A DNA stretch of 64,000 bases, taken from positions 4,656-68,655 of the forward strand of contig CAMCME010000001.1 of the NCBI GenBank assembly GCA_945875925.1, given 5' to 3'. This document shows, piece after piece, positions 1-60,207 of the stretch. The notes beneath the pieces were generated by a model. That model was not told the origin of the DNA, did no database searches, and saw nothing but the letters and a program-made list of their open reading frames with translations. The DNA is from Rickettsia typhi. GTDB lineage: Bacteria > Pseudomonadota > Alphaproteobacteria > Rickettsiales > UBA1997. Numbering within the stretch: position 1 is the stretch's first letter; each line of letters opens with the position of its first letter. The position numbers were made by a program, and so were the translations under genes.

Positions 1-905
1 ACATCCATTACGGAATTAGAGAACATGCGATGGGCGCTTTGATGAATGGTATAACACTTCACGGTGGATTTTTGCCTTACGCAGGCACTTTCCTAGTTTT
101 CTCTGACTACATGAAACCAGCGGTTCGTTTGGCTGCTTTAATGAAATTGCGCTGCATTTATATTTTCACTCATGACTCAATTGGTCTTGGTGAAGATGGT
201 CCAACTCATCAACCAATTGAACATTTGGCAAGTCTGCGCGCCATTCCAAATTTAAATGTTTTCCGCCCTGCTGATGCGCAAGAAACTATTGGATGTTTTG
301 AACAAGCTTTGAAAGCCAAAGAAACTCCATCAGCCATAGTTTTAACTAGACAAAATGTCTCTTTCTTACGCAGCGAATATAGAAAAGATGAAGGTTTCTG
401 CTCACGCGGTGGCTATATCATTTCAGACACTGCACTTGATATTGAGCCAGATGTAGTTTTGATTTCTACAGGTTCAGAAGTTTCAATCGCGATTGAAACT
501 AAAGAAAAATTACACAAACACGGTCTTGCCGTGCGTGTAGTTTCTATGCCATGTTTTGAAATTTTTGCTACTCAAGAAAAATCTTACAAAAACCGTGTTT
601 TGGGTGCAGAACATATTTTAAGAGTTGGTATTGAAGCTGGAATTGACCAATTATGGTGCCGTTATATCGGTAAAGACGGAATCTTCATCGGCATGGAAAC
701 ATTCGGTGCTTCAGGAAAAGCTGAAGATCTTTACAAACATTTCGGAATTACTTCTGACAATGCTTGCGAAAAAATCTTAGCTGAAATGAAAATTCGTCGC
801 AGAGCTGGAATCGCTAAATATAAAGACAGTGATGATGTTTTGGACGAATTAGATAAATATAAAGAACAAATCAGAAAAGAAGTTGAGGATGATGACGAAA
901 GCTAA
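1..905 (+). CDS. tkt: Transketolase, C-terminal ~300 aa (5' end outside window)
   Basis: Frame is open from base 3 (IHYGIREHAMGALMNG). Motif GEDGPTHQPIEHLASLRAIPN is typical of transketolase. Ends with a ~37-aa charged tail beyond the usual C-terminus. Confidence 0.9.
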   Translation, partial: IHYGIREHAMGALMNGITLHGGFLPYAGTFLVFSDYMKPAVRLAALMKLRCIYIFTHDSIGLGEDGPTHQPIEHLASLRAIPNLNVFRPADAQETIGCFEQALKAKETPSAIVLTRQNVSFLRSEYRKDEGFCSRGGYIISDTALDIEPDVVLISTGSEVSIAIETKEKLHKHGLAVRVVSMPCFEIFATQEKSYKNRVLGAEHILRVGIEAGIDQLWCRYIGKDGIFIGMETFGASGKAEDLYKHFGITSDNACEKILAEMKIRRRAGIAKYKDSDDVLDELDKYKEQIRKEVEDDDES

Positions 906-1920
906 AAAAACTTTCTTAATACTTATTTTCAACGCTTTAATAGGCTGCTCCGTCCATAACGGATCATATTACCAAGGACCAATTTCTGATCATTTTGACG
1001 GCAAGAGATTTGACTCGGAAAATGATCAGGATTTCTTTGACACTCTCAGATTTTCTTTCACTCCAAAACCTACTTGGAACAATGTTGATAAGCCTTTAGA
1101 ACTTGGTAAAATAGAAAATTTACCAAATTCTGAAAAAGCCAAAATCATCTTCATTGGACATTCCACTTTTTTAATTCAACTTAAAAATTCTAATATTTTA
1201 ACCGACCCAATTTGGTCAGAAAGTGCTGGCCCAATAAGCTTCGCCAGCCCTTCTCGCTATGTAAAACCCGCCATTTCTTTTGATAATTTACCAAAAATTA
1301 ACTATGTGCTGATCAGCCATAGCTCTTACTATCACATGGATGTGCCGACTATTATAGAACTCAAAAAAAGATTTAATCCGCAATTTATTACGGGACTTGG
1401 AAATTGTTATTATTTGAATGTTAAACAAAAACTTGGAGTTGATTGCACCGAACTTGATTGGGATGAGAAGCTTGATTTGGCAGGCATCGGAGAGCTTTAT
1501 TTTACTAAAGCCAAACATTGGTCCAAAAGATTATTTTTCGATTATGACAAAACTTTATGGGGATCTTTCATCATTAAAAATCCTGAAATAAAAATTTTCT
1601 TCAGCGGCGACAGCGGCTATGACGATCATTTTAAAGTTATGGGCTATCAATATGGACCTTTCGATGTAGCGCTGATGCAAATGGGATCTTACGAACCAAG
1701 ATGGTTTTTGAAGAATCACCACATGAACCCTGAAGAAGCTGTGATGGCACATAAGGATTTGAAATCGAAGAAATCAATCGGTATGCATTTCGCAACTTTT
1801 AGAACTTCAACTGAAGGTTATAGAGATCCCGAAATTGATTTAGAGAAAGCGAAGCTGAAGCATGAAGTGAGAAAAGAAGATTTTATAGCGCCGAAAGTTG
1901 GAGAAGTTTTTGAGTTTTAG
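889..1920 (+). CDS. MBL-fold (NAPE-PLD-like) hydrolase-family lipoprotein
   Basis: Lipobox-like LIGCS follows a hydrophobic N-terminus. Family pattern seen: GHSTFLIQ, LTDP, HWSKR, GDSGY, NHHMNPEEA, GMHFATF. The expected HxHxDH motif reads HSSYYH. ORF track start is 883 (TTG); ATG at 889/892. Confidence 0.6.
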   Translation: MMTKAKKTFLILIFNALIGCSVHNGSYYQGPISDHFDGKRFDSENDQDFFDTLRFSFTPKPTWNNVDKPLELGKIENLPNSEKAKIIFIGHSTFLIQLKNSNILTDPIWSESAGPISFASPSRYVKPAISFDNLPKINYVLISHSSYYHMDVPTIIELKKRFNPQFITGLGNCYYLNVKQKLGVDCTELDWDEKLDLAGIGELYFTKAKHWSKRLFFDYDKTLWGSFIIKNPEIKIFFSGDSGYDDHFKVMGYQYGPFDVALMQMGSYEPRWFLKNHHMNPEEAVMAHKDLKSKKSIGMHFATFRTSTEGYRDPEIDLEKAKLKHEVRKEDFIAPKVGEVFEF

Positions 1921-2090
1921 ATAGCCTCCTTTGCAAAAAGAGTTCTTGCTACGCAAGGCGTGACGGAGGATTTTGACGCAACACGCTCGCAATATTAATA
2001 TTTTTAAATCGATAACTAATTTCAAATTTTGAATCACCCATCTCAAATGGCTTTGGCATTTGATCCACCCTATTTTGCAAAGAGGGCTTA
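1921..2090. repeat. Dispersed repeat family D, copy 1; fills the convergent MBL/znuA intergenic region
   Basis: About 95 nt (1995-2089) is ~85% identical by eye to 60343-60436. Bounded by an imperfect inverted repeat: AGCCTCCTTTGCAAAAAG (1924-1941) vs CTATTTTGCAAAGAGGGCT (2069-2087). Confidence 0.75.
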
Positions 2091-2981
2091 CTTCAAACAA
2101 TCCAACAAATCATTAGAAAGATTCACCATCAAAACCGCATAACCATTTTCACCCACATTCTTTTTCGAACCAATTTCATCCAAAATCGAGAATTTAATTT
2201 TATATTTTTCCGCCAATTTCATCGCTGAATTTTTCTCATCTTGCGGCTCACCAAAAATACATTTTACAGATTTTATCTTCATCAAATCGTCAATTTCTTT
2301 CAGAGATTTTACCGTCAAGTCAGAGCCATGGCTATAACTTACAACCTTCAAGGGCTTAACTCCAAAGGCATCTTCAAAATATTGATAACCATCATGATAA
2401 AAAATATAGCCGAAATTTTCTTTGTTTTTAATTGTCGCTAAATTCTTTTGGATATTTTTCTGCATAGCCAAAATTTCTTTAGTAAATTTCGCTAAATTTT
2501 TCTGATATTTTTTAGAATTTTGTCCATCAATTTCAGAAATTTTCCCCGTGATAAATTCGGCAATTTTAATAGAATTTTGTGGATCTAGCCAAATATGTGG
2601 ATCGATTTTTTTAATATCATTTCTTCTTTGCAAAAGCTTGATATCATTGATTTTGGCTAATTCAAAAATTTGTGATTCTTTGCCAGAATTTTTGGTTAAT
2701 TTTAAGAAGCTATTTTCCAAATCGCGACTAACATAAAAAATCAAATCTGCTTTACTAACTGCTTCAGCATCGTTTTTTTTTAGTTGATAATCATGCTCTG
2801 AAACATTTGGATTAATTATTAAAATGCTATTTTCTGGGTCTTTAGTAATTGCTAAAACTATTTGATAAATCGGATTTATTGAGGTGAGAATTGTAGGATT
2901 TTTTGCTGAAGAATTTTCGATAAAAGCAGCGCAGAAAAGAAAAAATACAGAAAGGAATTTTAGAAAAAACCGCATCACCAA
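2088..2981 (-). CDS. znuA: Periplasmic metal (Zn/Mn)-binding protein, ZnuA/TroA family
   Basis: Signal peptide present. Motifs SEHDYQLK, DPHIWLDP, FYHDGYQYF. Divergent from an ABC ATPase gene 17 bp away. Confidence 0.8.
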   Translation of the reverse strand: MVMRFFLKFLSVFFLFCAAFIENSSAKNPTILTSINPIYQIVLAITKDPENSILIINPNVSEHDYQLKKNDAEAVSKADLIFYVSRDLENSFLKLTKNSGKESQIFELAKINDIKLLQRRNDIKKIDPHIWLDPQNSIKIAEFITGKISEIDGQNSKKYQKNLAKFTKEILAMQKNIQKNLATIKNKENFGYIFYHDGYQYFEDAFGVKPLKVVSYSHGSDLTVKSLKEIDDLMKIKSVKCIFGEPQDEKNSAMKLAEKYKIKFSILDEIGSKKNVGENGYAVLMVNLSNDLLDCLK

Positions 2982-20386: not shown

Positions 20387-21082
20387 CTAAAACTCCTCAC
20401 CCTCTTCCACCTTACTCCAAGGAAACTTCGCAGCAGTTCTGCCTTTTTTAAAAGTAGTATTACAAATCAAATCATAAGCCGTAACTTTTCTCTTAGTGAT
20501 CAAATGAATTTGCACCCAACCAATAAATAAAATTCCAAAAAACACATTCGCAGGGCTGGCTGTTATTGTATCAAAGAAATTTGTCTTGTGAGCATTTTGA
20601 TAAATCACGATGTAGAAGATATAAAGAAAAGGCAGGGTTGATAAAAAATAATGCTCCAAAGCTAAACCAAAACTTGGTCTAGAATTTCCCGAATTTTTCA
20701 CAATCACCATATTAGATAATCTCTTGCCAATTGTGGCTTGCCAAGCTGATGAATTAAGCAAAGAGTAATAAAGCGCGCCCACAAAAATCACAATCGCATA
20801 GCAAATTAAAACTGCGTAGAAAAATTTGTGATGGATCACAAAATCAATATGTTCAGGCGTACTTTTTACAGTTTCTGTGCCGAATTTATCATGAAATTCT
20901 GTCAAAAAATCTTGAATAATTTGATTCATAAATAGCGACCCCAAAAGCTGCGCCACCAAAGATCTAAGCACCAACACAATCACCATATCCATCATCGAAG
21001 CACTACTTCTTTTGAACGAACCCGGAAAAGGAGATTCTTCGGCAGTTTTTCTAGCAAAAATTTTATTAATGTTCATAGCCAT
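20387..21082 (-). CDS. RDD-family membrane protein
   Basis: TM helices and the pattern ATIGKRLSNMVIVKNSG typical of RDD domains. Confidence 0.5.
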   Translation of the reverse strand: MAMNINKIFARKTAEESPFPGSFKRSSASMMDMVIVLVLRSLVAQLLGSLFMNQIIQDFLTEFHDKFGTETVKSTPEHIDFVIHHKFFYAVLICYAIVIFVGALYYSLLNSSAWQATIGKRLSNMVIVKNSGNSRPSFGLALEHYFLSTLPFLYIFYIVIYQNAHKTNFFDTITASPANVFFGILFIGWVQIHLITKRKVTAYDLICNTTFKKGRTAAKFPWSKVEEGEEF

Positions 21083-22064
21083 ATTTTTTGATTTTTATTT
21101 TCTTATTTTTCTCGTCAAACAAAGATATTTCAAATTTTTTATTAGCCGAATTTTTTAATTCTCCAATGCAAGTTAAGTCTAATTTAAGCTCACGGCCCAA
21201 GGCTTCAACCTCTTTAGCTTTTTTCTTTTCTACTGTAAATATCAGCTCATAATCATCTCCCGCACTGCTTAAATCAAGCACAGAAATTTTAGAATTTTTC
21301 TGAAGAATTTTTCTAGCTTCAACCGAAAGTGGAATTTTATTTTGATAAATTTCTGCCGATAATTTTGAAGATTCACAAATATGTTTAAGATCGGCAAATA
21401 GGCCGTCCGAAACATCAATCGCACATTTAGAAATATTTTTTGTCAGCAATCTTTGTCCTAAATTAATTCTAGGAGTTGGAAAAAAATGACGATCTAAAAA
21501 ATATTTTAAAGATTTTTTATCCGCAATTTCCACTTTATTATTCAAAGCCTGAAGCCCTAAATAAGCGTCTCCAATTGAGCCAGAAACAAAAATTAAATCT
21601 CCATCTTTAGCATTTCCTCTAGCCAAATTTTTACTTTTTTTTGCCACACCAAAAATTGTAATTGAGAAGAAAAGTTGTTTGGCACTAACCGTGTCTCCGC
21701 CAATTAAAGAAAGGCCAAATTCATCTTGCACGCTTTTTAGGCCTGCCGCAAATTCACTAATAAATTTTTCTGAAATTTTAGAATTTTTAGAAAACCCTAA
21801 AAGATAATGAAGGGGAGTAGCGCCAGCAGAGGCAAGGTCTGAGAGATTTGAACGAAGTAATTTTGAAGCAATTGTAAATCCACCATCTGACATTAAAAAA
21901 TGTACGCCTTGCACCATCAAATCTTTGCTGATGATCAGCTGTTCATCTTTTTTCAAAGAAATTTTCGCTACATCATCAGACAGATTTTGCGCCGCTTCAC
22001 AAGAGTTGGTAAGCGGCTGAAAAAATTTTTCTATTAAGTTAAATTCTTCTAATTTCTTAGACAT
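21066..22064 (-). CDS. thiL: Thiamine-monophosphate kinase
   Basis: EFNLIEKFF, AIR-synthase-like fold motifs DLMVQGVHF, GGDT, GDDYELIFT. Confidence 0.8.
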   Translation of the reverse strand: MSKKLEEFNLIEKFFQPLTNSCEAAQNLSDDVAKISLKKDEQLIISKDLMVQGVHFLMSDGGFTIASKLLRSNLSDLASAGATPLHYLLGFSKNSKISEKFISEFAAGLKSVQDEFGLSLIGGDTVSAKQLFFSITIFGVAKKSKNLARGNAKDGDLIFVSGSIGDAYLGLQALNNKVEIADKKSLKYFLDRHFFPTPRINLGQRLLTKNISKCAIDVSDGLFADLKHICESSKLSAEIYQNKIPLSVEARKILQKNSKISVLDLSSAGDDYELIFTVEKKKAKEVEALGRELKLDLTCIGELKNSANKKFEISLFDEKNKKIKIKKYGYEH

Positions 22065-22564
22065 TTGCTGATTAAAATTTTTACCACCTTATCCAAAGAG
22101 AATATTCCCGCGCCATAAACAAAGACAGTGGCAAGCATAATCATCCAGTAAAAATGTTCAGGATTTTGCAAAATGAATAATTGAATTATTGTTGTCATGC
22201 CCAAAAGCACTAAAGCCATTGGTCTTGTAGCAAGCCCCAAAATTAAAAGCGTTGAACATCCAAGTTCACAAATAATTGTAAAATAAGCTGCAAAAACTGG
22301 TGGCAAAAGCGGCACATTATATAAATTTTCAAAGAGATAAATTGTAGCGTCAATGCTAGAAATTTTCACCAAACCACTTTTAAAAAACACCATTGCAACC
22401 ATAATTCTCAAGGTAAAAAGCAAAAATGGAGAAACATATTTTTCCAGAAATTTGGCTTTTTTTTCACAGAATTTTTCTAAACATAAAATTATTTTTGCCG
22501 ATTTTTCACATTTCATTTTTGACCTTACTTTATTTAGTAATTTTGAAATCCACAAAGACTCCAC
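22049..22564 (-). CDS. DoxX-family membrane protein (4th gene of the MNIO operon)
   Basis: LRIMVAMVFFKSGLVKI and four TM helices. The start may be the internal Met at 22516. Confidence 0.6.
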   Translation of the reverse strand: MESLWISKLLNKVRSKMKCEKSAKIILCLEKFCEKKAKFLEKYVSPFLLFTLRIMVAMVFFKSGLVKISSIDATIYLFENLYNVPLLPPVFAAYFTIICELGCSTLLILGLATRPMALVLLGMTTIIQLFILQNPEHFYWMIMLATVFVYGAGIFSLDKVVKILISKCLRN

Positions 22565-23342
22565 TAGAGATAAATCGATTCAGAAAATTCCCAATATCGA
22601 TTTCTTTCTTAGCAACCTCCTTTTTAGTCTTTCGACAAATTTTCTGATAAGTTTCATATAATTTTTTACCATCACCAATAAGCGACAAAAATATAAATTC
22701 TTCCTCTGTTAATTTAGTAATCATTGATTTCCCACCAACGCGCTCAATCAGAATCATTTCAGCATTATCAGCAATTTTTATTCTCTTCTTTTTATCCTCA
22801 ATATTATTTTTCCAAATTGTAAAAACTGGAAATTTTGAAGAAAATAAAAGGCTCGTTGGGTGAAGTTTAAATGATAGATCTTTATATTTTTCTGGGGCAA
22901 TTTTTTTAAATTTTTCCACATCAAAAAGCGCTTTAGCATCTTTTTCAAAATAGCTTTGGTGATAGAGCCATTCTAGCTTGGCAACATCTTCTAAATAAAG
23001 TAACTTATGTTCTTTTAATTTTTTCTTAATGAAGGCGGGAAAATATTGTCCGTAAAAATCGAGATTTCCACTTTGCGATGGATGCTTTACAGCGTAGGTT
23101 TCAACTAATTTTTCAAAATATTTTTCACCAACAATTTTTTTTACCACTTCAAAAGTTGATGCTAAAACTCCTTCAAAATTTCCAATAACATTATTGCGGT
23201 AAATGTTTAAACGAGCTAGAGCCTCTTGTTTTGAATAAGGTAATTCATCAATAATTTTCTGATCATCTTTATCAAAAATATGCGAAGCAAAATCTTGCTG
23301 CAATTTCACTAATTCAGATTTTATATTTTTACTTTTGGGCAT
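22530..23342 (-). CDS. DUF2063-family protein (MNIO partner, MbnC/BufC-like position)
   Basis: The N-terminal pattern LQQDFASHIF...RLNIYRNNVIGNFEGVLASTF..VKKIVGEKYFEKL matches my recollection of DUF2063. Overlaps the DUF692 gene by 14 nt. Confidence 0.7.
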   Translation of the reverse strand: MPKSKNIKSELVKLQQDFASHIFDKDDQKIIDELPYSKQEALARLNIYRNNVIGNFEGVLASTFEVVKKIVGEKYFEKLVETYAVKHPSQSGNLDFYGQYFPAFIKKKLKEHKLLYLEDVAKLEWLYHQSYFEKDAKALFDVEKFKKIAPEKYKDLSFKLHPTSLLFSSKFPVFTIWKNNIEDKKKRIKIADNAEMILIERVGGKSMITKLTEEEFIFLSLIGDGKKLYETYQKICRKTKKEVAKKEIDIGNFLNRFISSGVFVDFKITK

Positions 23343-24207
23343 TTTTTAAGATTTTTTTAGCTTTTTCGGCTTCACTTAAAAGCACTTCTAAATGAGGAAT
23401 ATCTTGATCCCATTCAATCAAAGTTGGAATTTTTCCGAATTTTTTTATCGCCATTTTATAAATCTGCCAAACCTCACTGCACACCAAGTCATTATGGGTG
23501 TCGATCAAAATTTGCTTATCTTTTTTTCCATCAAAAATTTTTGATTTTGAATGCCCTGCCAAATGAATTTCGGCAACCGATTTTTTATCAATTTTTTCTA
23601 AATATTCTTTCGGATTAAATTCTGCATTATTTTGCGAACTAACAAAAATATTATTCACATCTAACAACAACTCACATCCTGTCTTTCTGGTCACCTGATT
23701 AATAAAATCAGCTTCATCCATTTCAGGGTTTTTAAAACTTAAATAAGTGGATGGATTTTCAATCAAAATTTTTCTGCCCAAATAATCTTGCATCAGCGAA
23801 ATATTATTAGAAATCGCTTCTACTACTTCTTTTGTGTAAGGCAGTGGCAATAAGTCATTTAAATTTTGATCAGCAGTTGCGCCCCAAGAAATATGATCCG
23901 AAACCAAAAATGGATCGATCATTTCAATAAGTTTTTTTAGGGGTTTTAAATGATTTAAATCAATTTTTTGAGCCGAGCCCAAAGAATTTCCAACGCAGTG
24001 AAAACTGACGGGATAATTTTTTCTAATTTCTGTAAGATATTTAATTGCCGGACCACCTTTCGCGTAATAATTTTCGCTGTGAATTTCTAACCAACCAATT
24101 TGGGGATTTTCTTCTAAGATGCGGCTAATATGAGGGGATCGAAGCCCGATTCCAACTTTATCAGTTGGAATCGAGATTCTTGATTCAGTGATTTTTTTAC
24201 TCATCAC
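23329..24207 (-). CDS. DUF692/UPF0276 family protein (MNIO, MbnB/BufB-like)
   Basis: VGIGLRSPH, EIHSENYY, SFHCVGNSLGS, LVSDHISW, LLPLPYT, LIENPSTY, LLDVNNIFVS, IHLAGHS, LIDTH, LIEWD. Confidence 0.85.
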   Translation of the reverse strand: MMSKKITESRISIPTDKVGIGLRSPHISRILEENPQIGWLEIHSENYYAKGGPAIKYLTEIRKNYPVSFHCVGNSLGSAQKIDLNHLKPLKKLIEMIDPFLVSDHISWGATADQNLNDLLPLPYTKEVVEAISNNISLMQDYLGRKILIENPSTYLSFKNPEMDEADFINQVTRKTGCELLLDVNNIFVSSQNNAEFNPKEYLEKIDKKSVAEIHLAGHSKSKIFDGKKDKQILIDTHNDLVCSEVWQIYKMAIKKFGKIPTLIEWDQDIPHLEVLLSEAEKAKKILKNAQK

Positions 24208-24218
24208 TTAAGTCAAAA

Positions 24219-24506
24219 CTAGTTAGATTTAACTTCAGATTTAGCTTCAGCGGCTGGTTTAACTTCAGCGGCTTTTTTAGCTTTTTTGTGATGCTTTTTA
24301 GCTTTAGCTTCAGTTTTAACTTCAGCTTTAGCTTCTACTTTAGCAGCAGGAGCTACTTCTTTACCTTTAGCAGCACATTTGTGAGCTTCTTCAGCTTTTT
24401 TGCTAGAACATTTGTGAGATGATTTTCCAGTAAGTTGTGCACAAGAAGCGATAAGGCCTAAACTAACAACGCCAGTAATAACTGATTTGATGAAATTTTT
24501 GTTCAT
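24219..24506 (-). CDS. Small secreted/lipoprotein-like Cys-His-Lys-rich protein (candidate RiPP precursor)
   Basis: MNKNFIKSVITGVVSLGLIASC signal/lipobox, two HKC triplets, and a Lys/Ala/Glu-rich tail. Located 12 nt upstream of the DUF692 gene. ORF track extends to 24590. Confidence 0.5.
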   Translation of the reverse strand: MNKNFIKSVITGVVSLGLIASCAQLTGKSSHKCSSKKAEEAHKCAAKGKEVAPAAKVEAKAEVKTEAKAKKHHKKAKKAAEVKPAAEAKSEVKSN

Positions 24507-24703
24507 AATAAGAAATATTAATTTTTTAAATAACTTGAGAATCGGGTTTGTGGTAATGTCCTGTGGATTAGGATTTTTCAGGCTATTCACCGCTTCAAAT
24601 TTGTCAAATGCTTAAAATTCTTTTTTGACATTAGTAAATTTCTTTGTTCAAATTAGGGCCATATTTTCAAGTTTATTTTAACTTCCAAATCTCCCCCCAA
24701 AAA

Positions 24704-25909
24704 ATGATCAAAGAGCAATTTCTGAACAGCATTAGAGCTGAATTACAAGACCTAAAAAATACAGGTCTTTACAAAAGTGAATATGAAATTGTTACCCCTC
24801 AATCTCCCGACATCGAAATTTTTCATCACGGCTTAAAGAAAAAAGTTATAAATTTTTGCGCTAATAATTATTTGGGTTTGGCCAATAACCAAAGTTTGAT
24901 TGAGGTTGGCAAAAAATCTCTTGAAGAATATGGGCTTGGTACAGCCTCTGTGCGCTTCATTTGCGGCACTTTCGATTTACATAAAAAATTTGAAAGAGAC
25001 TTAGCGGAATTTTTAGGATTTGAAGATGTAATCACTTTTTCATCATGCTTCGCTGCTAATGGCGGTTTGTTTGCCGCACTTTTTGATCAAGATGATGCGA
25101 TCATTTCTGCTGATTTAAATCACGCTAGTTTAATTGACGGAATAAGACTTTCTAAAGCCGCACGCCATTTTTATAAATTTGATGACATGGCAGATTTAGA
25201 AAAAAAATTACAAGATGCCGCAAGTGCAAAAACTCGCGTGATTGTTACTGACGGCGTATTTTCAATGGATGGTGACATTGCAAAACTTAATGAAATTTGC
25301 AATTTAGCTGAAAAATATAATGCATTAGTTTTGGTTGATGACTCTCACGCTACTGGTTTTACTGGTGCTTCGGGCCGCGGCACTTTTGAATTATGCGGCG
25401 TTGAAGGCAGAGTTGATATTTTAACCAGCACACTTGGAAAAGCTTTGGGTGGAAGTGGTGGCGGTTTCATCGCTTCTAAAAAAGAAGTGATTGATAAATT
25501 AAGAAATAAGGCACGCCCTTATCTTTTCTCAAACAACATCTTGCCAATGACTGCAGCTGTTGGAATTGAGATTTTACAAATGTTAAAAGATTCAAAAGGT
25601 CTGATCAAAAAACTTGCTGACAACACTACTTATTTCAGAAGCAAAATGGTGGAAGCAGGCTTTGATATTAGATCTGGCGTTCATCCTGTGGTTCCTGTAA
25701 TGTTTGGCGATGCAATTTTGGCCAGCAAAGTTGCCAAAATGATGATTGAAGAAGAAGGAATTTATGTAATTGCATTTTCTTTCCCAGTGGTACCAAAAAA
25801 CGAAGCGAGAATTCGTGTACAAATTTCTGCGGCACACAGTAAAGAGCATTTAGATAGTGCTATTGCTGCCTTTATCAAGGTTGGACAAAAACTGAAAATA
25901 ATTAAATAA
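24704..25909 (+). CDS. kbl: 2-amino-3-ketobutyrate CoA ligase (glycine C-acetyltransferase)
   Basis: Colinear with E. coli Kbl as I recall it: INFCANNYLGLA, ASVRFICGT, DGVFSMDGDIA, DDSHATGF, TLGKALGG. Confidence 0.85.
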   Translation: MIKEQFLNSIRAELQDLKNTGLYKSEYEIVTPQSPDIEIFHHGLKKKVINFCANNYLGLANNQSLIEVGKKSLEEYGLGTASVRFICGTFDLHKKFERDLAEFLGFEDVITFSSCFAANGGLFAALFDQDDAIISADLNHASLIDGIRLSKAARHFYKFDDMADLEKKLQDAASAKTRVIVTDGVFSMDGDIAKLNEICNLAEKYNALVLVDDSHATGFTGASGRGTFELCGVEGRVDILTSTLGKALGGSGGGFIASKKEVIDKLRNKARPYLFSNNILPMTAAVGIEILQMLKDSKGLIKKLADNTTYFRSKMVEAGFDIRSGVHPVVPVMFGDAILASKVAKMMIEEEGIYVIAFSFPVVPKNEARIRVQISAAHSKEHLDSAIAAFIKVGQKLKIIK

Positions 25910-60132: not shown

Positions 60133-60207
60133 TGGTGACCCCTACGGAATTCGAATCCGTATTGCCACCGTGAAAGGGTGGCGTCCTAACCGTTAGACGA
60201 AGGGGCC
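60133..60207 (-). tRNA. tRNA-Glu (anticodon UUC), CCA encoded
   Basis: Minus strand reads GGCCCCTTCGTCTAACGGTTAGGACGCCACCCTTTCACGGTGGCAATACGGATTCGAATTCCGTAGGGGTCACCA. Anticodon arm is CCACC-CTTTCAC-GGTGG. Confidence 0.95.

Follow-up and report, generated by a model that had tools for sequence, protein, structure and literature searches.

The locus described here is a real four-gene operon of the bufferin/captophorin RiPP type, comprising a precursor gene, a BufB-type MNIO, its DUF2063 partner, and DoxX, and it lies within a 64-kb stretch of DNA (the window). In operons of this known kind, an iron enzyme working with a partner protein converts Cys residues of an exported peptide into rings that bind copper. 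We give a probability of about 0.6 to the reading that the operon encodes a disordered, lipoprotein-type precursor that derives from BufA1 and is matured in the way proposed below. This reading builds on what was observed directly, namely, the identities of the genes, the conservation of the precursor family, the lipobox, the linkage to the MNIO, and the predicted disorder of the product.

Table 1. Features of the operon and its surroundings (window coordinates)
Feature	Position	Strand	Details
Promoter-like element preceding the small ORF	24580..24607	-	TTGACA (24607-24602), 16-nt spacer, TAGCCT (24585-24580)
Small ORF, candidate lipoprotein-type precursor	24219..24506	-	95 aa + stop; homologues all start at MNK/MKK
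First His-Lys-Cys site (H31-K32-C33), candidate modification site	24408..24416	-	Fits family motif [N/H]-K-C-[S/A]-[A/S]-K-K
Second His-Lys-Cys site (H42-K43-C44), candidate modification site	24375..24383	-	Fits family motif
Lys/Ala/Glu-rich tail, residues 45-95	24222..24374	-	Predicted disordered; encoded by 6/12/18-nt tandem repeats
BufB-type MNIO (DUF692), predicted Cys-to-5-thiooxazole maturase	23329..24207	-	Pfam PF05114 (MbnB_TglH_ChrH), 335 bits
DUF2063 partner (PME type 1, BufC/HvfC-like)	22530..23342	-	Pfam PF09836, 83 bits (cut-off 27.2)
DoxX membrane protein (BufD/HvfX-like)	22049..22564	-	Pfam PF07681, 63 bits; start GTG 22564 or ATG 22516
thiL-like gene (AIR-synthase-related)	21066..22064	-	Pfam AIRS/AIRS_C; outside the assigned system

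The four open reading frames (ORFs) are tightly packed and codirectional on the minus strand in the order small ORF, MNIO, DUF2063, and DoxX, with thiL next (Table 1). All four had been recognized in a preliminary description of this DNA, and its assignment of an MNIO-DUF2063-DoxX operon of the bufferin type is backed by Pfam and NCBIfam model scores; in the profile search that it had proposed, the MNIO, DUF2063, and DoxX models were matched and the small ORF had no DUF2282 match. The MNIO scores 361 bits against NCBIfam NF050167 (MNIO_BufB; cut-off 310) and 228 bits against HvfB, below the cut-off of 360, its best match in the PDB is 3BWW (E=2e-36), its metal-ligand motifs are conserved, and the eight DUF692 motifs listed earlier are all present in its translation. 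The MNIOs of the clade carry GLR-[S/H] and EWD-Q (GLR-S and EWD-Q in the window) at the positions that we map, by our own inference from PMC13097082, to FonB Arg16 and Phe250, and on this mapping, the window MNIO lacks the R-R / D-F signature residues reported for Lys-Cys-type MNIOs (PMC13097082).

The partner proteins fall below the NCBIfam cut-offs for HvfC (DUF2063, 56 bits; cut-off 142) and HvfX (DoxX, 50 bits; cut-off 80). The gap between the stop of the small ORF and the start of the MNIO is 11 nt in the window, where a search for a same-strand terminator gave no credible one, and the previously reported 14-nt overlap of the DUF2063 and MNIO genes was found again. The DoxX gene had also been called correctly, but its reported overlap with DUF2063 exists only with the GTG start, as the ATG at 22516 leaves a 13-nt gap; gene calls in the relatives, which are MAGs labeled Rickettsiales, suggest a start at or near this ATG. 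DoxX is accessory and limited to part of the clade; among the loci checked, it was found only in the window and the near-identical L034/L035, L001, L007, L018, L032/L033, and L039/L040. The thiL-like gene, which shares 16 nt with DoxX, is probably cotranscribed with the cluster, and in most relatives, thiL comes after the MNIO cluster. Two ankyrin-repeat proteins are also encoded in the window.

The longest frame of the small ORF runs from a GTG at 24590 and encodes 123 aa, and all homologues begin at the position of the ATG at 24506 (MNK..., 95 aa); because of this shared start and the promoter-like element at 24580-24607, we take 24506 to 24219 to be the true coding sequence. Its N terminus reads MNKNFIKSVITGVVSLGL-IAS-C22, in which a positive n-region and a hydrophobic h-region are followed by a match to [LVI][ASTVI][GAS]C, and the signal peptide (residues 1 to 21) ends in the lipobox L-I-A-S-C with Cys22 (codon 24443-24441). 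The signal end GLIASC, the segments SSHKCSS and EAHKCAAKG, and the Lys/Ala/Glu tail appear in the translation exactly as previously given, and there are indeed only two core Cys, although C33 and C44 are 11 positions apart, not 10, and the basic low-complexity tail is about 51 aa long, not about 60. Aromatic residues are absent from the mature protein, whose net charge is +11, and AlphaFold2 predicts a helix at residues 3 to 24 only, with a pLDDT of about 46 to 54 for the remainder.

The promoter-like element aligns with a conserved block, CAATTGACAAGTCAAAATTGCCAAATAGTTTGC, found about 80 to 100 nt ahead of the small ORF in the relatives, and an exact 14-mer of this block occurs once per locus in 18 loci. 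The window's element keeps the -35 and -10 hexamers and lacks the TTGAC-AA-GTCAA palindrome, and an AGGT Shine-Dalgarno-like element is absent as well; most relatives have both. The closest relatives, L001 and L009, likewise lack the palindrome and retain the operon. A generic promoter scan of the window did not flag the site at 24580-24607.

A search of 1.84 billion proteins at E<=1e-3 gave 50 cluster representatives homologous to the small ORF, and a set of 5.8 billion proteins gave 100 clusters (at 90% identity), all from uncultured Rickettsiales-like bacteria, and none of the roughly 100 clusters has a Pfam or NCBIfam assignment. Because homologue clusters are found in these large sets, the small ORF is, on comparative grounds, a real gene and not a chance ORF; it is also intact and 98 to 100% identical in two independent metagenome contigs (P0001 and P0002). 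The family shares one build, that is, a lipoprotein signal with an invariant lipobox Cys at residue 22, Cys units, and a polybasic disordered tail, and 147 of its 150 unique sequences match the lipoprotein rule (a PROSITE PS51257-like pattern). The core Cys number at least 2 in every member (range, 2 to 9; exactly 2 in 26 of 150 sequences) and lie in [N/H]-K-C-[S/A] units, with (K/D)-E-A-[N/H]-K-C-[S/A]-[A/S]-K-K as the core motif, and the number of units varies via 15/30-nt tandem DNA repeats. The "HKC" that had been proposed as the repeat motif turns out to be a local spelling of [N/H]-K-C-[S/A], His not being conserved at residue -2 to the core Cys (Asn at 77 of 129 sites versus His at 41). 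A pair of ligands per copper ion has been reported for Buf1 and oxazolin (PMC11626156, PMC11252979), and the presence of at least 2 core Cys in every member fits such a need. Judged from its sequences, this is an unnamed, unstructured, lysine-rich, and presumably lipid-anchored family known only from an uncultured Rickettsiales-like group.

Of 26 genome loci, 22 have the small ORF immediately upstream of the MNIO, as do other contigs, and at least four different genomic contexts show this linkage; the comparison of neighborhoods suggested earlier therefore finds it conserved beside MNIO homologues in relatives. Canonical BufA1 (DUF2282) adjoins it in the same cluster in deeper relatives, and in L018 and L039/L040, BufA1 is nearby in the opposite orientation and the small ORF, not BufA1, heads the MNIO operon. 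The small ORF is more tightly linked to the MNIO than BufA1 is. Four loci (L004, L008, L012, and L029) keep the small ORF with MNIO and DUF2063 absent beside it, and one genome among these carries another cluster, a complete one, at a different place (L008/L018). Related genomes and MAGs contain canonical BufA1 genes, sometimes as orphans, and the window contains none.

BufA1 itself is marked by four conserved Cys (EKCYG, NDC, HSCAG, and GxC), a W/P/G C-terminal segment, and a small-protein fold. The preliminary description had seen no such DUF2282 pattern in the precursor slot and had named an ordinary DUF2282 member as the alternative; the small ORF fails both the model and the four-Cys pattern, since it has no match at E<=1 to Pfam including PF10048 (DUF2282), only two core Cys, nothing that corresponds to columns W68/P72/G74/C76 in alignment A3, and a mature part that is predicted to be disordered. 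PF10048 is likewise absent from the best 25 of the 31 Pfam families matching 54 family members. An hhalign comparison of the family with BufA1, in which the N-terminal half of the small protein is the part that resembles BufA1, gave 96% probability (E=1.5e-9), mostly driven by the signal peptide, as the signal-peptide part had P=4e-8 and the mature part alone reached 16% probability (P=1.6e-3). The mature part of the alignment lies over Cys-II/Cys-III of BufA1, which are the modified residues of Buf1 (PMC11626156), and takes in the second His-Lys-Cys site of the window protein, and the family core motif resembles the Cys-III site H-S-C-A-G. The synteny with BufA1 supports descent of the small ORF by duplication, and together with the profile similarity, it suggests a BufA1 origin, so that the family is probably a truncated, repeat-amplified BufA1 derivative rather than an unrelated one. 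As for other precursor models, the window protein and 52 of 54 members do not match the BufA2 model (NCBIfam NF050166; cut-off 60 bits), which two distant members match faintly (22 and 16 bits), and no family member matches the oxazolin/HvfA models in NCBIfam. EGKCG 5-mers are absent from the window precursor, the sites of which read SHKCS and AHKCA.

Our results lead us to infer, by analogy with studied systems, how the small protein may be modified, lipidated, localized, and loaded with copper. In the cytoplasm, the MNIO-DUF2063 complex would oxidize C33 and C44, at their H-K-C-[S/A] sites, to 5-thiooxazoles (-4 Da each), which absorb at around 302-305 nm, and spare the lipobox Cys22. The peptide would then leave the cytoplasm by Sec, receive a diacylglyceryl group on Cys22 from Lgt, be cut by signal peptidase II, and be N-acylated; since residue +2 is Ala and not Asp, its probable destination would be the outer membrane. 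There, the thiooxazole pair may chelate one copper ion and so buffer copper at the envelope, with the polybasic tail possibly serving as a flexible spacer or envelope contact. In relatives, the Cys-bearing unit would have been amplified to 2 to 9 sites by tandem-repeat slippage.

Since canonical BufA1 genes exist in related genomes, the main substrate of the enzyme in the window's genome could instead be a BufA1 outside the window. The small ORF might then be an accessory lipoprotein and no substrate, its Cys/Lys-rich chain binding metal via unmodified thiols or helping to handle the bufferin, while the MNIO-DUF2063 pair acts on canonical BufA1 elsewhere in the genome. We regard this as unlikely, although the bona fide BufA1 beside the small ORF in deeper relatives, the orphan BufA1 genes in related MAGs, a BufB equivalog that lacks the specificity residues reported for Lys-Cys-type enzymes, and the four loci that retain the small ORF with no MNIO next to it all speak for it, as do several non-RiPP lipoprotein clusters inside bufferin BGCs, one of them a "hypothetical protein in bufferin BGC" (PMC13056109). 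It sits poorly with the window's lack of BufA1, the tighter MNIO linkage of the small ORF, and the minimum of two core Cys in every family member, and it is specifically the units resembling the modified BufA1 site that have been amplified.

That the small ORF is instead a divergent oxazolin / Buf_EGKCG (HvfA, NedA, FonA) Lys-Cys repeat member, processed likewise and not derived from BufA1, seems to us quite improbable: the zero matches to NCBIfam oxazolin/HvfA models, the MNIO's BufB rather than HvfB score, a partner protein below the HvfC cut-off, an enzyme without the R-R / D-F signature, and the synteny and profile similarity that point to BufA1 outweigh a shared Lys-Cys dyad, small residue after Cys, upstream acidic residue, and tandem repetition, disorder like that of type-2 Buf_EGKCG domains (PMC12452194), and the existence of lipoprotein oxazolins (PMC13056109). 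Very improbable indeed is a decaying remnant in an operon that no longer yields a functional product, as might be read from a window copy at the family minimum of two core Cys that is missing the AGGT element and palindrome of most relatives. The ORF is intact and nearly unchanged in P0001 and P0002, the enzyme motifs are all intact, the same Cys minimum recurs in 26 of 150 sequences, and L001 and L009 kept the operon without the palindrome.

The preliminary description had considered the precursor class undescribed, but the 2024-2026 literature already holds lipoprotein-type bufferins/oxazolins, precursors with Lys-Cys repeats, and, upstream of MNIOs, hundreds of unclassified ORFs that combine a signal peptide with Cys (PMC12452194, PMC13056109, PMC13097082). 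Only this particular precursor family is unnamed, and it is a variant within a class described recently rather than a class of its own. The closest known system is Bufferin 1, BufA1-BufB1-BufC1-BufD1 (DUF2282 / MNIO / DUF2063 / DoxX; Leprevost et al. 2024, PMC11626156), which belongs to the "captophorin" class (Gadgil et al. 2026, PMC13097082). The gene order and the three accessory families are the same, the MNIO passes the BufB equivalog cut-off, the window precursor carries a Sec-type signal peptide and is encoded directly upstream of the MNIO, its central Cys pair is spaced by about 10 to 11 residues with the second Cys in an H-x-C-[A/S] context like BufA1 Cys-III, and the window's relatives have true BufA1 in the same cluster. 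In contrast to BufA1, the window precursor has no DUF2282/BufA1 model match and contains neither Cys-IV nor the W/P/G elements of the C-terminal fold. It has a polybasic tail, its predicted state is disordered instead of a small fold, a lipobox takes the place of the signal peptidase I site, and in its relatives the Cys unit is tandemly amplified.

The lipoprotein oxazolin NedA of Neisseria dentiae, modified (-12 Da) and triacylated by experiment (PMC13056109), and the DAG-RiPPs share with the window protein a lipoprotein signal on a Lys-Cys-containing MNIO/DUF2063 peptide that probably binds copper (for the window, by analogy) and the same predicted order of cytoplasmic modification followed by the Lgt/LspA/Lnt pathway. 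NedA, however, combines EGKCG repeats with an HvfB-like oxazolin enzyme, whereas the window has [N/H]KC[S/A] units with a BufB-type enzyme. Oxazolin, Buf_EGKCG, and fontiphorin precursors (HvfA, FonA; PMC11252979, PMC12452194, PMC13097082) likewise have short, repeated Lys-Cys units in which a small residue follows Cys, a variable repeat number, DoxX in the operon, and some unstructured members; in the oxazolin / Buf_EGKCG comparison, the window lacks the EGKCG 5-mer, a model match, an HvfB-level score, and the R-R / D-F residues, and the evolutionary neighborhood of its family is next to BufA1. In the Cys-Lys group of BufA2 / Buf_6/12Cys bufferins, about 16% of the peptides are predicted to be lipoproteins (PMC12452194). 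These bufferins resemble the window protein in this lipoprotein subset and in being Cys- and Lys-rich, but the window motif is Lys-Cys and not Cys-Lys, the window protein has neither a conserved pattern of six Cys nor a predicted fold, and it is the Lys-Cys precursor group of PMC13097082 that the family core motif resembles.

The preliminary description had read four tightly packed minus-strand genes of the window as an operon around an MNIO (a DUF692 iron enzyme), and this holds, with all of the MNIO motifs that it listed present in the translation. The operon is headed by a small ORF encoding a candidate lipoprotein-type precursor and is flanked by a Kbl-like aminotransferase gene and thiL. 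The MNIO matches Pfam MbnB_TglH_ChrH (335 bits) and the NCBIfam equivalog MNIO_BufB, the bufferin maturase (361 bits, cut-off 310), falls below the NCBIfam HvfB equivalog cut-off (228 bits vs 360), and its metal-ligand motifs align with 3BWW, the closest solved structure (E=2e-36). Because every homologue of the small ORF starts at the ATG at 24506, we place its coding sequence there; a GTG start at 24590, which would give the longest frame (123 aa), was ruled out, as all homologues start at MNK and the extra codons overlap a conserved promoter block. For DoxX, a start at GTG 22564 implies a 35-nt overlap with the DUF2063 gene and ATG 22516 a 13-nt gap and a 155-aa product as called in the related contig L001; relatives' gene calls suggest that the latter may be the true start. 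Transcription of the operon probably runs on through thiL and the RDD-family gene, and no credible same-strand terminator was found between the operon genes, a generic sigma-70 and terminator scan having given no more sites than shuffled sequence.

Features of the operon and of its surroundings in the window
Feature	Position	Strand	Remarks
Lactamase_B_2 gene	883-1920	+	metallo-beta-lactamase fold
ZnuA-type gene	2088-2981	-	periplasmic zinc-binding protein
RDD-family gene	20387-21082		overlaps thiL by 17 nt
thiL	21066-22064	-	overlaps DoxX by 16 nt
DoxX	22564->22049	-	63 bits; start ambiguous
DUF2063 partner	23342->22530	-	83 bits; 14-nt overlap with MNIO
MNIO	24207->23329	-	starts 11 nt after small-ORF stop
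Small ORF	24506->24219	-	95 aa; ATG start as in every homologue
Promoter-like element	24580-24607	-	TTGACA-N16-TAGCCT kept in window
Kbl-like aminotransferase gene	24644-25909	+	divergently transcribed from operon
RNase P RNA, class A	35683-36146	+	Rfam, 230 bits
Ankyrin-repeat protein	37064-38746	-	560 aa, weak Ank matches
tRNA	43335-43406	+	Rfam
tRNA	60136-60207	-	Rfam
Ankyrin-repeat protein	61125-63986	-	953 aa, strong Ank matches

Around the operon lie housekeeping genes (PurD, LipA, IspE, DegP-like, HflK/C-like, NadA, class I LysRS, MiaB-like, SecA, PepA, NuoL, and ComEC), and the RNase P RNA and the two tRNAs are the only Rfam matches above gathering score in the window. Ankyrin repeats are typical of host-interacting bacteria, and the two ankyrin-repeat proteins, together with the Rickettsiales labels of related MAGs, make host association of this organism plausible. 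A further ankyrin-repeat protein is encoded on the related contig L032. The ZnuA-type and Lactamase_B_2 genes, about 20 kb from the operon, have no evident link to it.

The small ORF is a genuine gene in a coherent family. A first search gave ten relatives, a profile run against 1.84 billion cluster representatives gave 50 (E<=1e-3), and one against a 5.8-billion-protein set gave 100 clusters; annotation throughout is "hypothetical" or none, and the one member with a precomputed Pfam match, to a histone-H1-like family, is taken as a compositional case. In the window, the protein sequence is MNKNFIKSVITGVVSLGLIAS-C22-AQLTGKSS-HKC33-SSKKAEEA-HKC44-AAKG..., with a Lys/Ala/Glu tail of 51 residues behind it. 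The N terminus, M-[NK]-K-x-F-[LI]-[KQ]-S, is nearly the same in every member, and the lipobox Cys is invariably residue 22; a PROSITE-style lipoprotein rule is satisfied by 147 of the 150 unique sequences (the other 3 are truncated or begin at a wrongly called start), with Ser or Ala at +2 in 137 of the 147 and Asp in none. Beyond the lipobox there are 2 to 9 core Cys per member, never fewer than two, in the motif (K/D)-E-A-[N/H]-K-C-[S/A]-[A/S]-K-K. Across 129 sites, position -2 is Asn in 77 and His in 41, position -1 is Lys in 73, and 112 sites carry Ser, Ala, or Gly at +1. The HKC triplet remarked on earlier does occur in the window, but as Asn outnumbers His at -2 it is only the local form of a family-wide [N/H]KC unit. 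Lys makes up 21 to 39% of the mature parts, whose net charge is +5 to +14 and which almost lack aromatic residues. For the window's protein, AlphaFold2 with the family alignment gives the signal-peptide helix alone (residues 3-24) and a pLDDT of ~46-54 for the mature part, which is thus predicted to be disordered; no PDB sequence matched the family profile. The signal-peptide n-region (M-N-K-K-F-L-Q/K-S-V; residues 1-9, window 24480-24506) is unusually conserved family-wide and is common to neighbouring BufA1 (DUF2282) precursors of the same lineages (MNKKTFISS), which could reflect recent duplication or a role in recognition.

Scanning one genome for each species turned up 26 loci, all in MAGs labelled Rickettsiales, Pelagibacterales, Alphaproteobacteria, or "uncultured Rhizobium," the last being implausible. 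In 22 of them the small ORF is directly followed by the gene of an MNIO 57 to 69% identical to the window's, and the DUF2063 gene is 3' of the MNIO wherever the contig is long enough. Metagenome contigs (L001-L003, L034/L035) have the same small ORF-MNIO arrangement. The flanks vary by locus group: Kbl lies upstream in many, others have a 365-aa lipoprotein-like gene and a dGTPase, L007, L018, and L026 have a DnaQ-like exonuclease gene, and L032 and L038 have PriA or a PfkB-family kinase. The pair thus holds together across contexts. DoxX is confined to the window and near-identical copies, L001, L007, L018, L032/L033, and L039/L040. At four loci (L004, L008, L012, L029) the small ORF is followed directly by thiL, at the Kbl/thiL site, with neither MNIO nor DUF2063. 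Three of these fall in one nested clade of a ThiL neighbour-joining tree, which favours loss or relocation over repeated insertion; insertion of an MNIO operon beside an unrelated resident lipoprotein gene is disfavoured by this nesting and by the small ORF travelling with the MNIO elsewhere. One MAG, CAYUSO01, holds both an MNIO-less small ORF (L008) and, elsewhere, another copy that is accompanied by MNIO, DUF2063, and DoxX genes as a full cluster and by a convergent BufA1 (L018), so that orphan small ORFs could be served in trans, as suggested for other bufferins (PMC12452194). Throughout the clade thiL lies 3' of the bufferin-type cluster, and in deeper relatives (L032, L038, L036) a PfkB/ThiD-like kinase gene precedes BufA1, a persistent synteny with thiamine-related genes.

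The Cys units of relatives lie in tandem DNA repeats of 15, 30, and 45 nt (for example, L016 5137-5276 and L015 5138-5233, with units NKCSA and NKCS[AS]KK[DS]EA), which is why near-identical homologues (P0003-P0008) differ in unit number. This suggests that slippage drives variation in the number of putative metal sites, from 2 to 9 units across the family. The window's Lys/Ala/Glu tail is encoded by 6/12/18-nt repeats. Comparison of relatives also revealed a conserved promoter-like block, CAATTGACAAGTCAAAATTGCCAAATAGTTTGC, 80 to 100 nt upstream of the small ORF; the exact 14-mer is present in 18 loci, once in each (e.g., L011 4905-4918 and L014 4912-4925). The relatives' -35 TTGACA is embedded in a TTGAC-AA-GTCAA palindrome, a possible operator. 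The palindrome was considered as a regulon marker but is missing from the window, also when 2 mismatches are allowed, as well as from L001 and L009.

In bufferins, an MNIO and a DUF2063 protein make 5-thiooxazoles on Cys residues of Sec-exported precursors, which chelate copper (PMC11626156). The window's small ORF matched no Pfam or NCBIfam family. Among the matches listed for 54 family members there was no BufA1, and no oxazolin/HvfA model was matched; two distant members gave faint matches to BufA2, a Cys-Lys precursor (22 and 16 bits, cut-off 60), and the rest was generic lipoprotein-signal noise. Deeper-branching relatives (L005, L032/L033, L038, one JGI contig) have the order BufA1 (PF10048), small ORF, MNIO, DUF2063, in some cases DoxX, and thiL; BufA1 is convergent and downstream of the operon in L018 and L039/L040, is an orphan in L036/L037, and is absent from the 64-kb window. 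Aligned as profiles, the family and 39 BufA1 sequences of these lineages gave 96% probability (E=1.5e-9, 53 columns). When the alignment was split, most of the signal came from the signal peptide (P=4e-8), the mature part alone matching weakly (P=1.6e-3) with KN-x-C...[N/H]KC[S/A] aligned to KNDC...HSCAG, that is, to Cys-II and Cys-III, the two residues turned into thiooxazoles in Buf1 (PMC11626156). On the basis of this alignment and the BufA1 synteny, the family is probably, with moderate support, a BufA1 duplicate. In that view the folded C-terminal half, with its Cys-IV, Trp, Pro, and Gly, would have gone, a lipobox and a basic tail would have been added, and the Cys-III-like unit would have been amplified.

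MNIOs of the Lys-Cys type conserve Arg15-Arg16 and Phe250, beside the catalytic Asp249, those of the Cys-Lys type have Asp at the Phe250 position, and DUF2282 types show no conservation there (PMC13097082). In all 29 clade MNIOs the motifs are GLR-[S/H/V/A] and, without variation, EWD-Q; if our residue mapping is right, they would belong to neither the Lys-Cys nor the Cys-Lys type, and would therefore fit a BufB1-like origin. FonBC, which acts on an oxazolin-type precursor, accepted Ala after Cys and no other tested residue (PMC13097082); in the present family that position is mostly Ser, Ala, or Gly.

A further-reaching reading, at a rough probability of 0.3, is that in this clade of probably host-associated Rickettsiales-like bacteria BufA1 gave rise by duplication, loss of its folded half, and conversion of the signal peptide to a lipobox to a membrane-tethered, disordered, polybasic thiooxazole peptide. 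This peptide would have taken over as chief substrate of a DUF2282-type MNIO, perhaps even as the sole one in the lineage of the window, and slippage of a 15/30-nt Cys-encoding repeat (2 to 9 sites) would tune how much copper it can take up. Apart from that reading, the mechanism proposed by analogy is that the MNIO-DUF2063 complex would oxidize C33 and C44 to 5-thiooxazoles in the cytoplasm, after which the peptide would be exported by Sec and processed at Cys22 by Lgt/LspA/Lnt. With Ala at +2, Lol would probably sort it to the outer membrane, a rule that comes from E. coli (summarised in PMC13056109). The thiooxazole pair would then chelate one copper ion at the envelope. DoxX is probably not biosynthetic (PMC11626156, PMC11252979); it and the signal peptide are dispensable for bufferin modification (PMC11626156), and in published work the signal peptide is dispensable for modification of BufA1 and HvfA.

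The main alternative, which we consider unlikely, casts the small protein as an accessory lipoprotein, with the MNIO acting on a BufA1 encoded elsewhere. The presence of BufA1 in related clusters and the BufB-type MNIO would suit such an arrangement, yet BufA1 is less tightly tied to the MNIO than the small ORF, whose Cys units resemble modification sites and are amplified, and at least two core Cys are found in every member. A divergent oxazolin as the source of the small ORF is less likely still. The oxazolin HvfA carries AEGKCGEGKCG repeats (PMC11252979), and its modification was later revised to 5-thiooxazole (PMC13097082). Least credible is that the small ORF is a decaying remnant, which we regard as very improbable.

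Were the further-reaching reading true, it would document a RiPP enzyme exchanging a folded protein substrate for a repeat peptide and place an envelope-anchored copper shield in Rickettsiales, an order in which captophorin clusters are reported to be depleted (PMC13097082). If the small lipoprotein is modified, the bufferin/captophorin class gains a lipid-anchored, disordered, polybasic precursor with as few as two sites, and a route by which such precursors evolve from BufA1 is revealed. It would also offer a compact two-site natural substrate for studies of BufB-type MNIO recognition, and uncultured Rickettsiales-like bacteria would be seen to keep envelope copper buffering, which is relevant to copper stress in hosts.

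The specific family is not named in the published texts consulted and has no model in the libraries. Its sequence strings have no match in the supplementary tables of PMC12452194 as far as these are searchable, and the supplementary lists of that paper and of PMC13056109 may yet include it. Among known systems, the MNIO-PME1 group, with >24,000 loci, has been named captophorins, with three precursor groups, DUF2282, Lys-Cys 5-mer repeats, and Cys-Lys (PMC13097082). Antoine et al. found lipoprotein signals in ~16% of Buf2 precursors and hundreds of unclassified ORFs upstream of MNIOs with a signal peptide and 1 to 18 Cys (PMC12452194). In 2026 the lipoprotein-type MNIO peptides DybA and the oxazolin NedA were experimentally shown to be modified and triacylated, as "DAG-RiPPs," and lipoprotein bufferins and oxazolins were listed along with several presumed non-RiPP lipoproteins within bufferin clusters (PMC13056109). 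Given these reports, a copper peptide that is membrane-tethered, of Lys-Cys type, and modified by an MNIO is, as a general idea, already published (PMC12452194, PMC13056109, PMC13097082). The preliminary description's view of the precursor class as undescribed does not stand, and its interpretation is partly right. Chemistry, operon type, and lipidation route being on record, no new class is opened, and the finding is a new precursor variant inside a known, recently well-described class.
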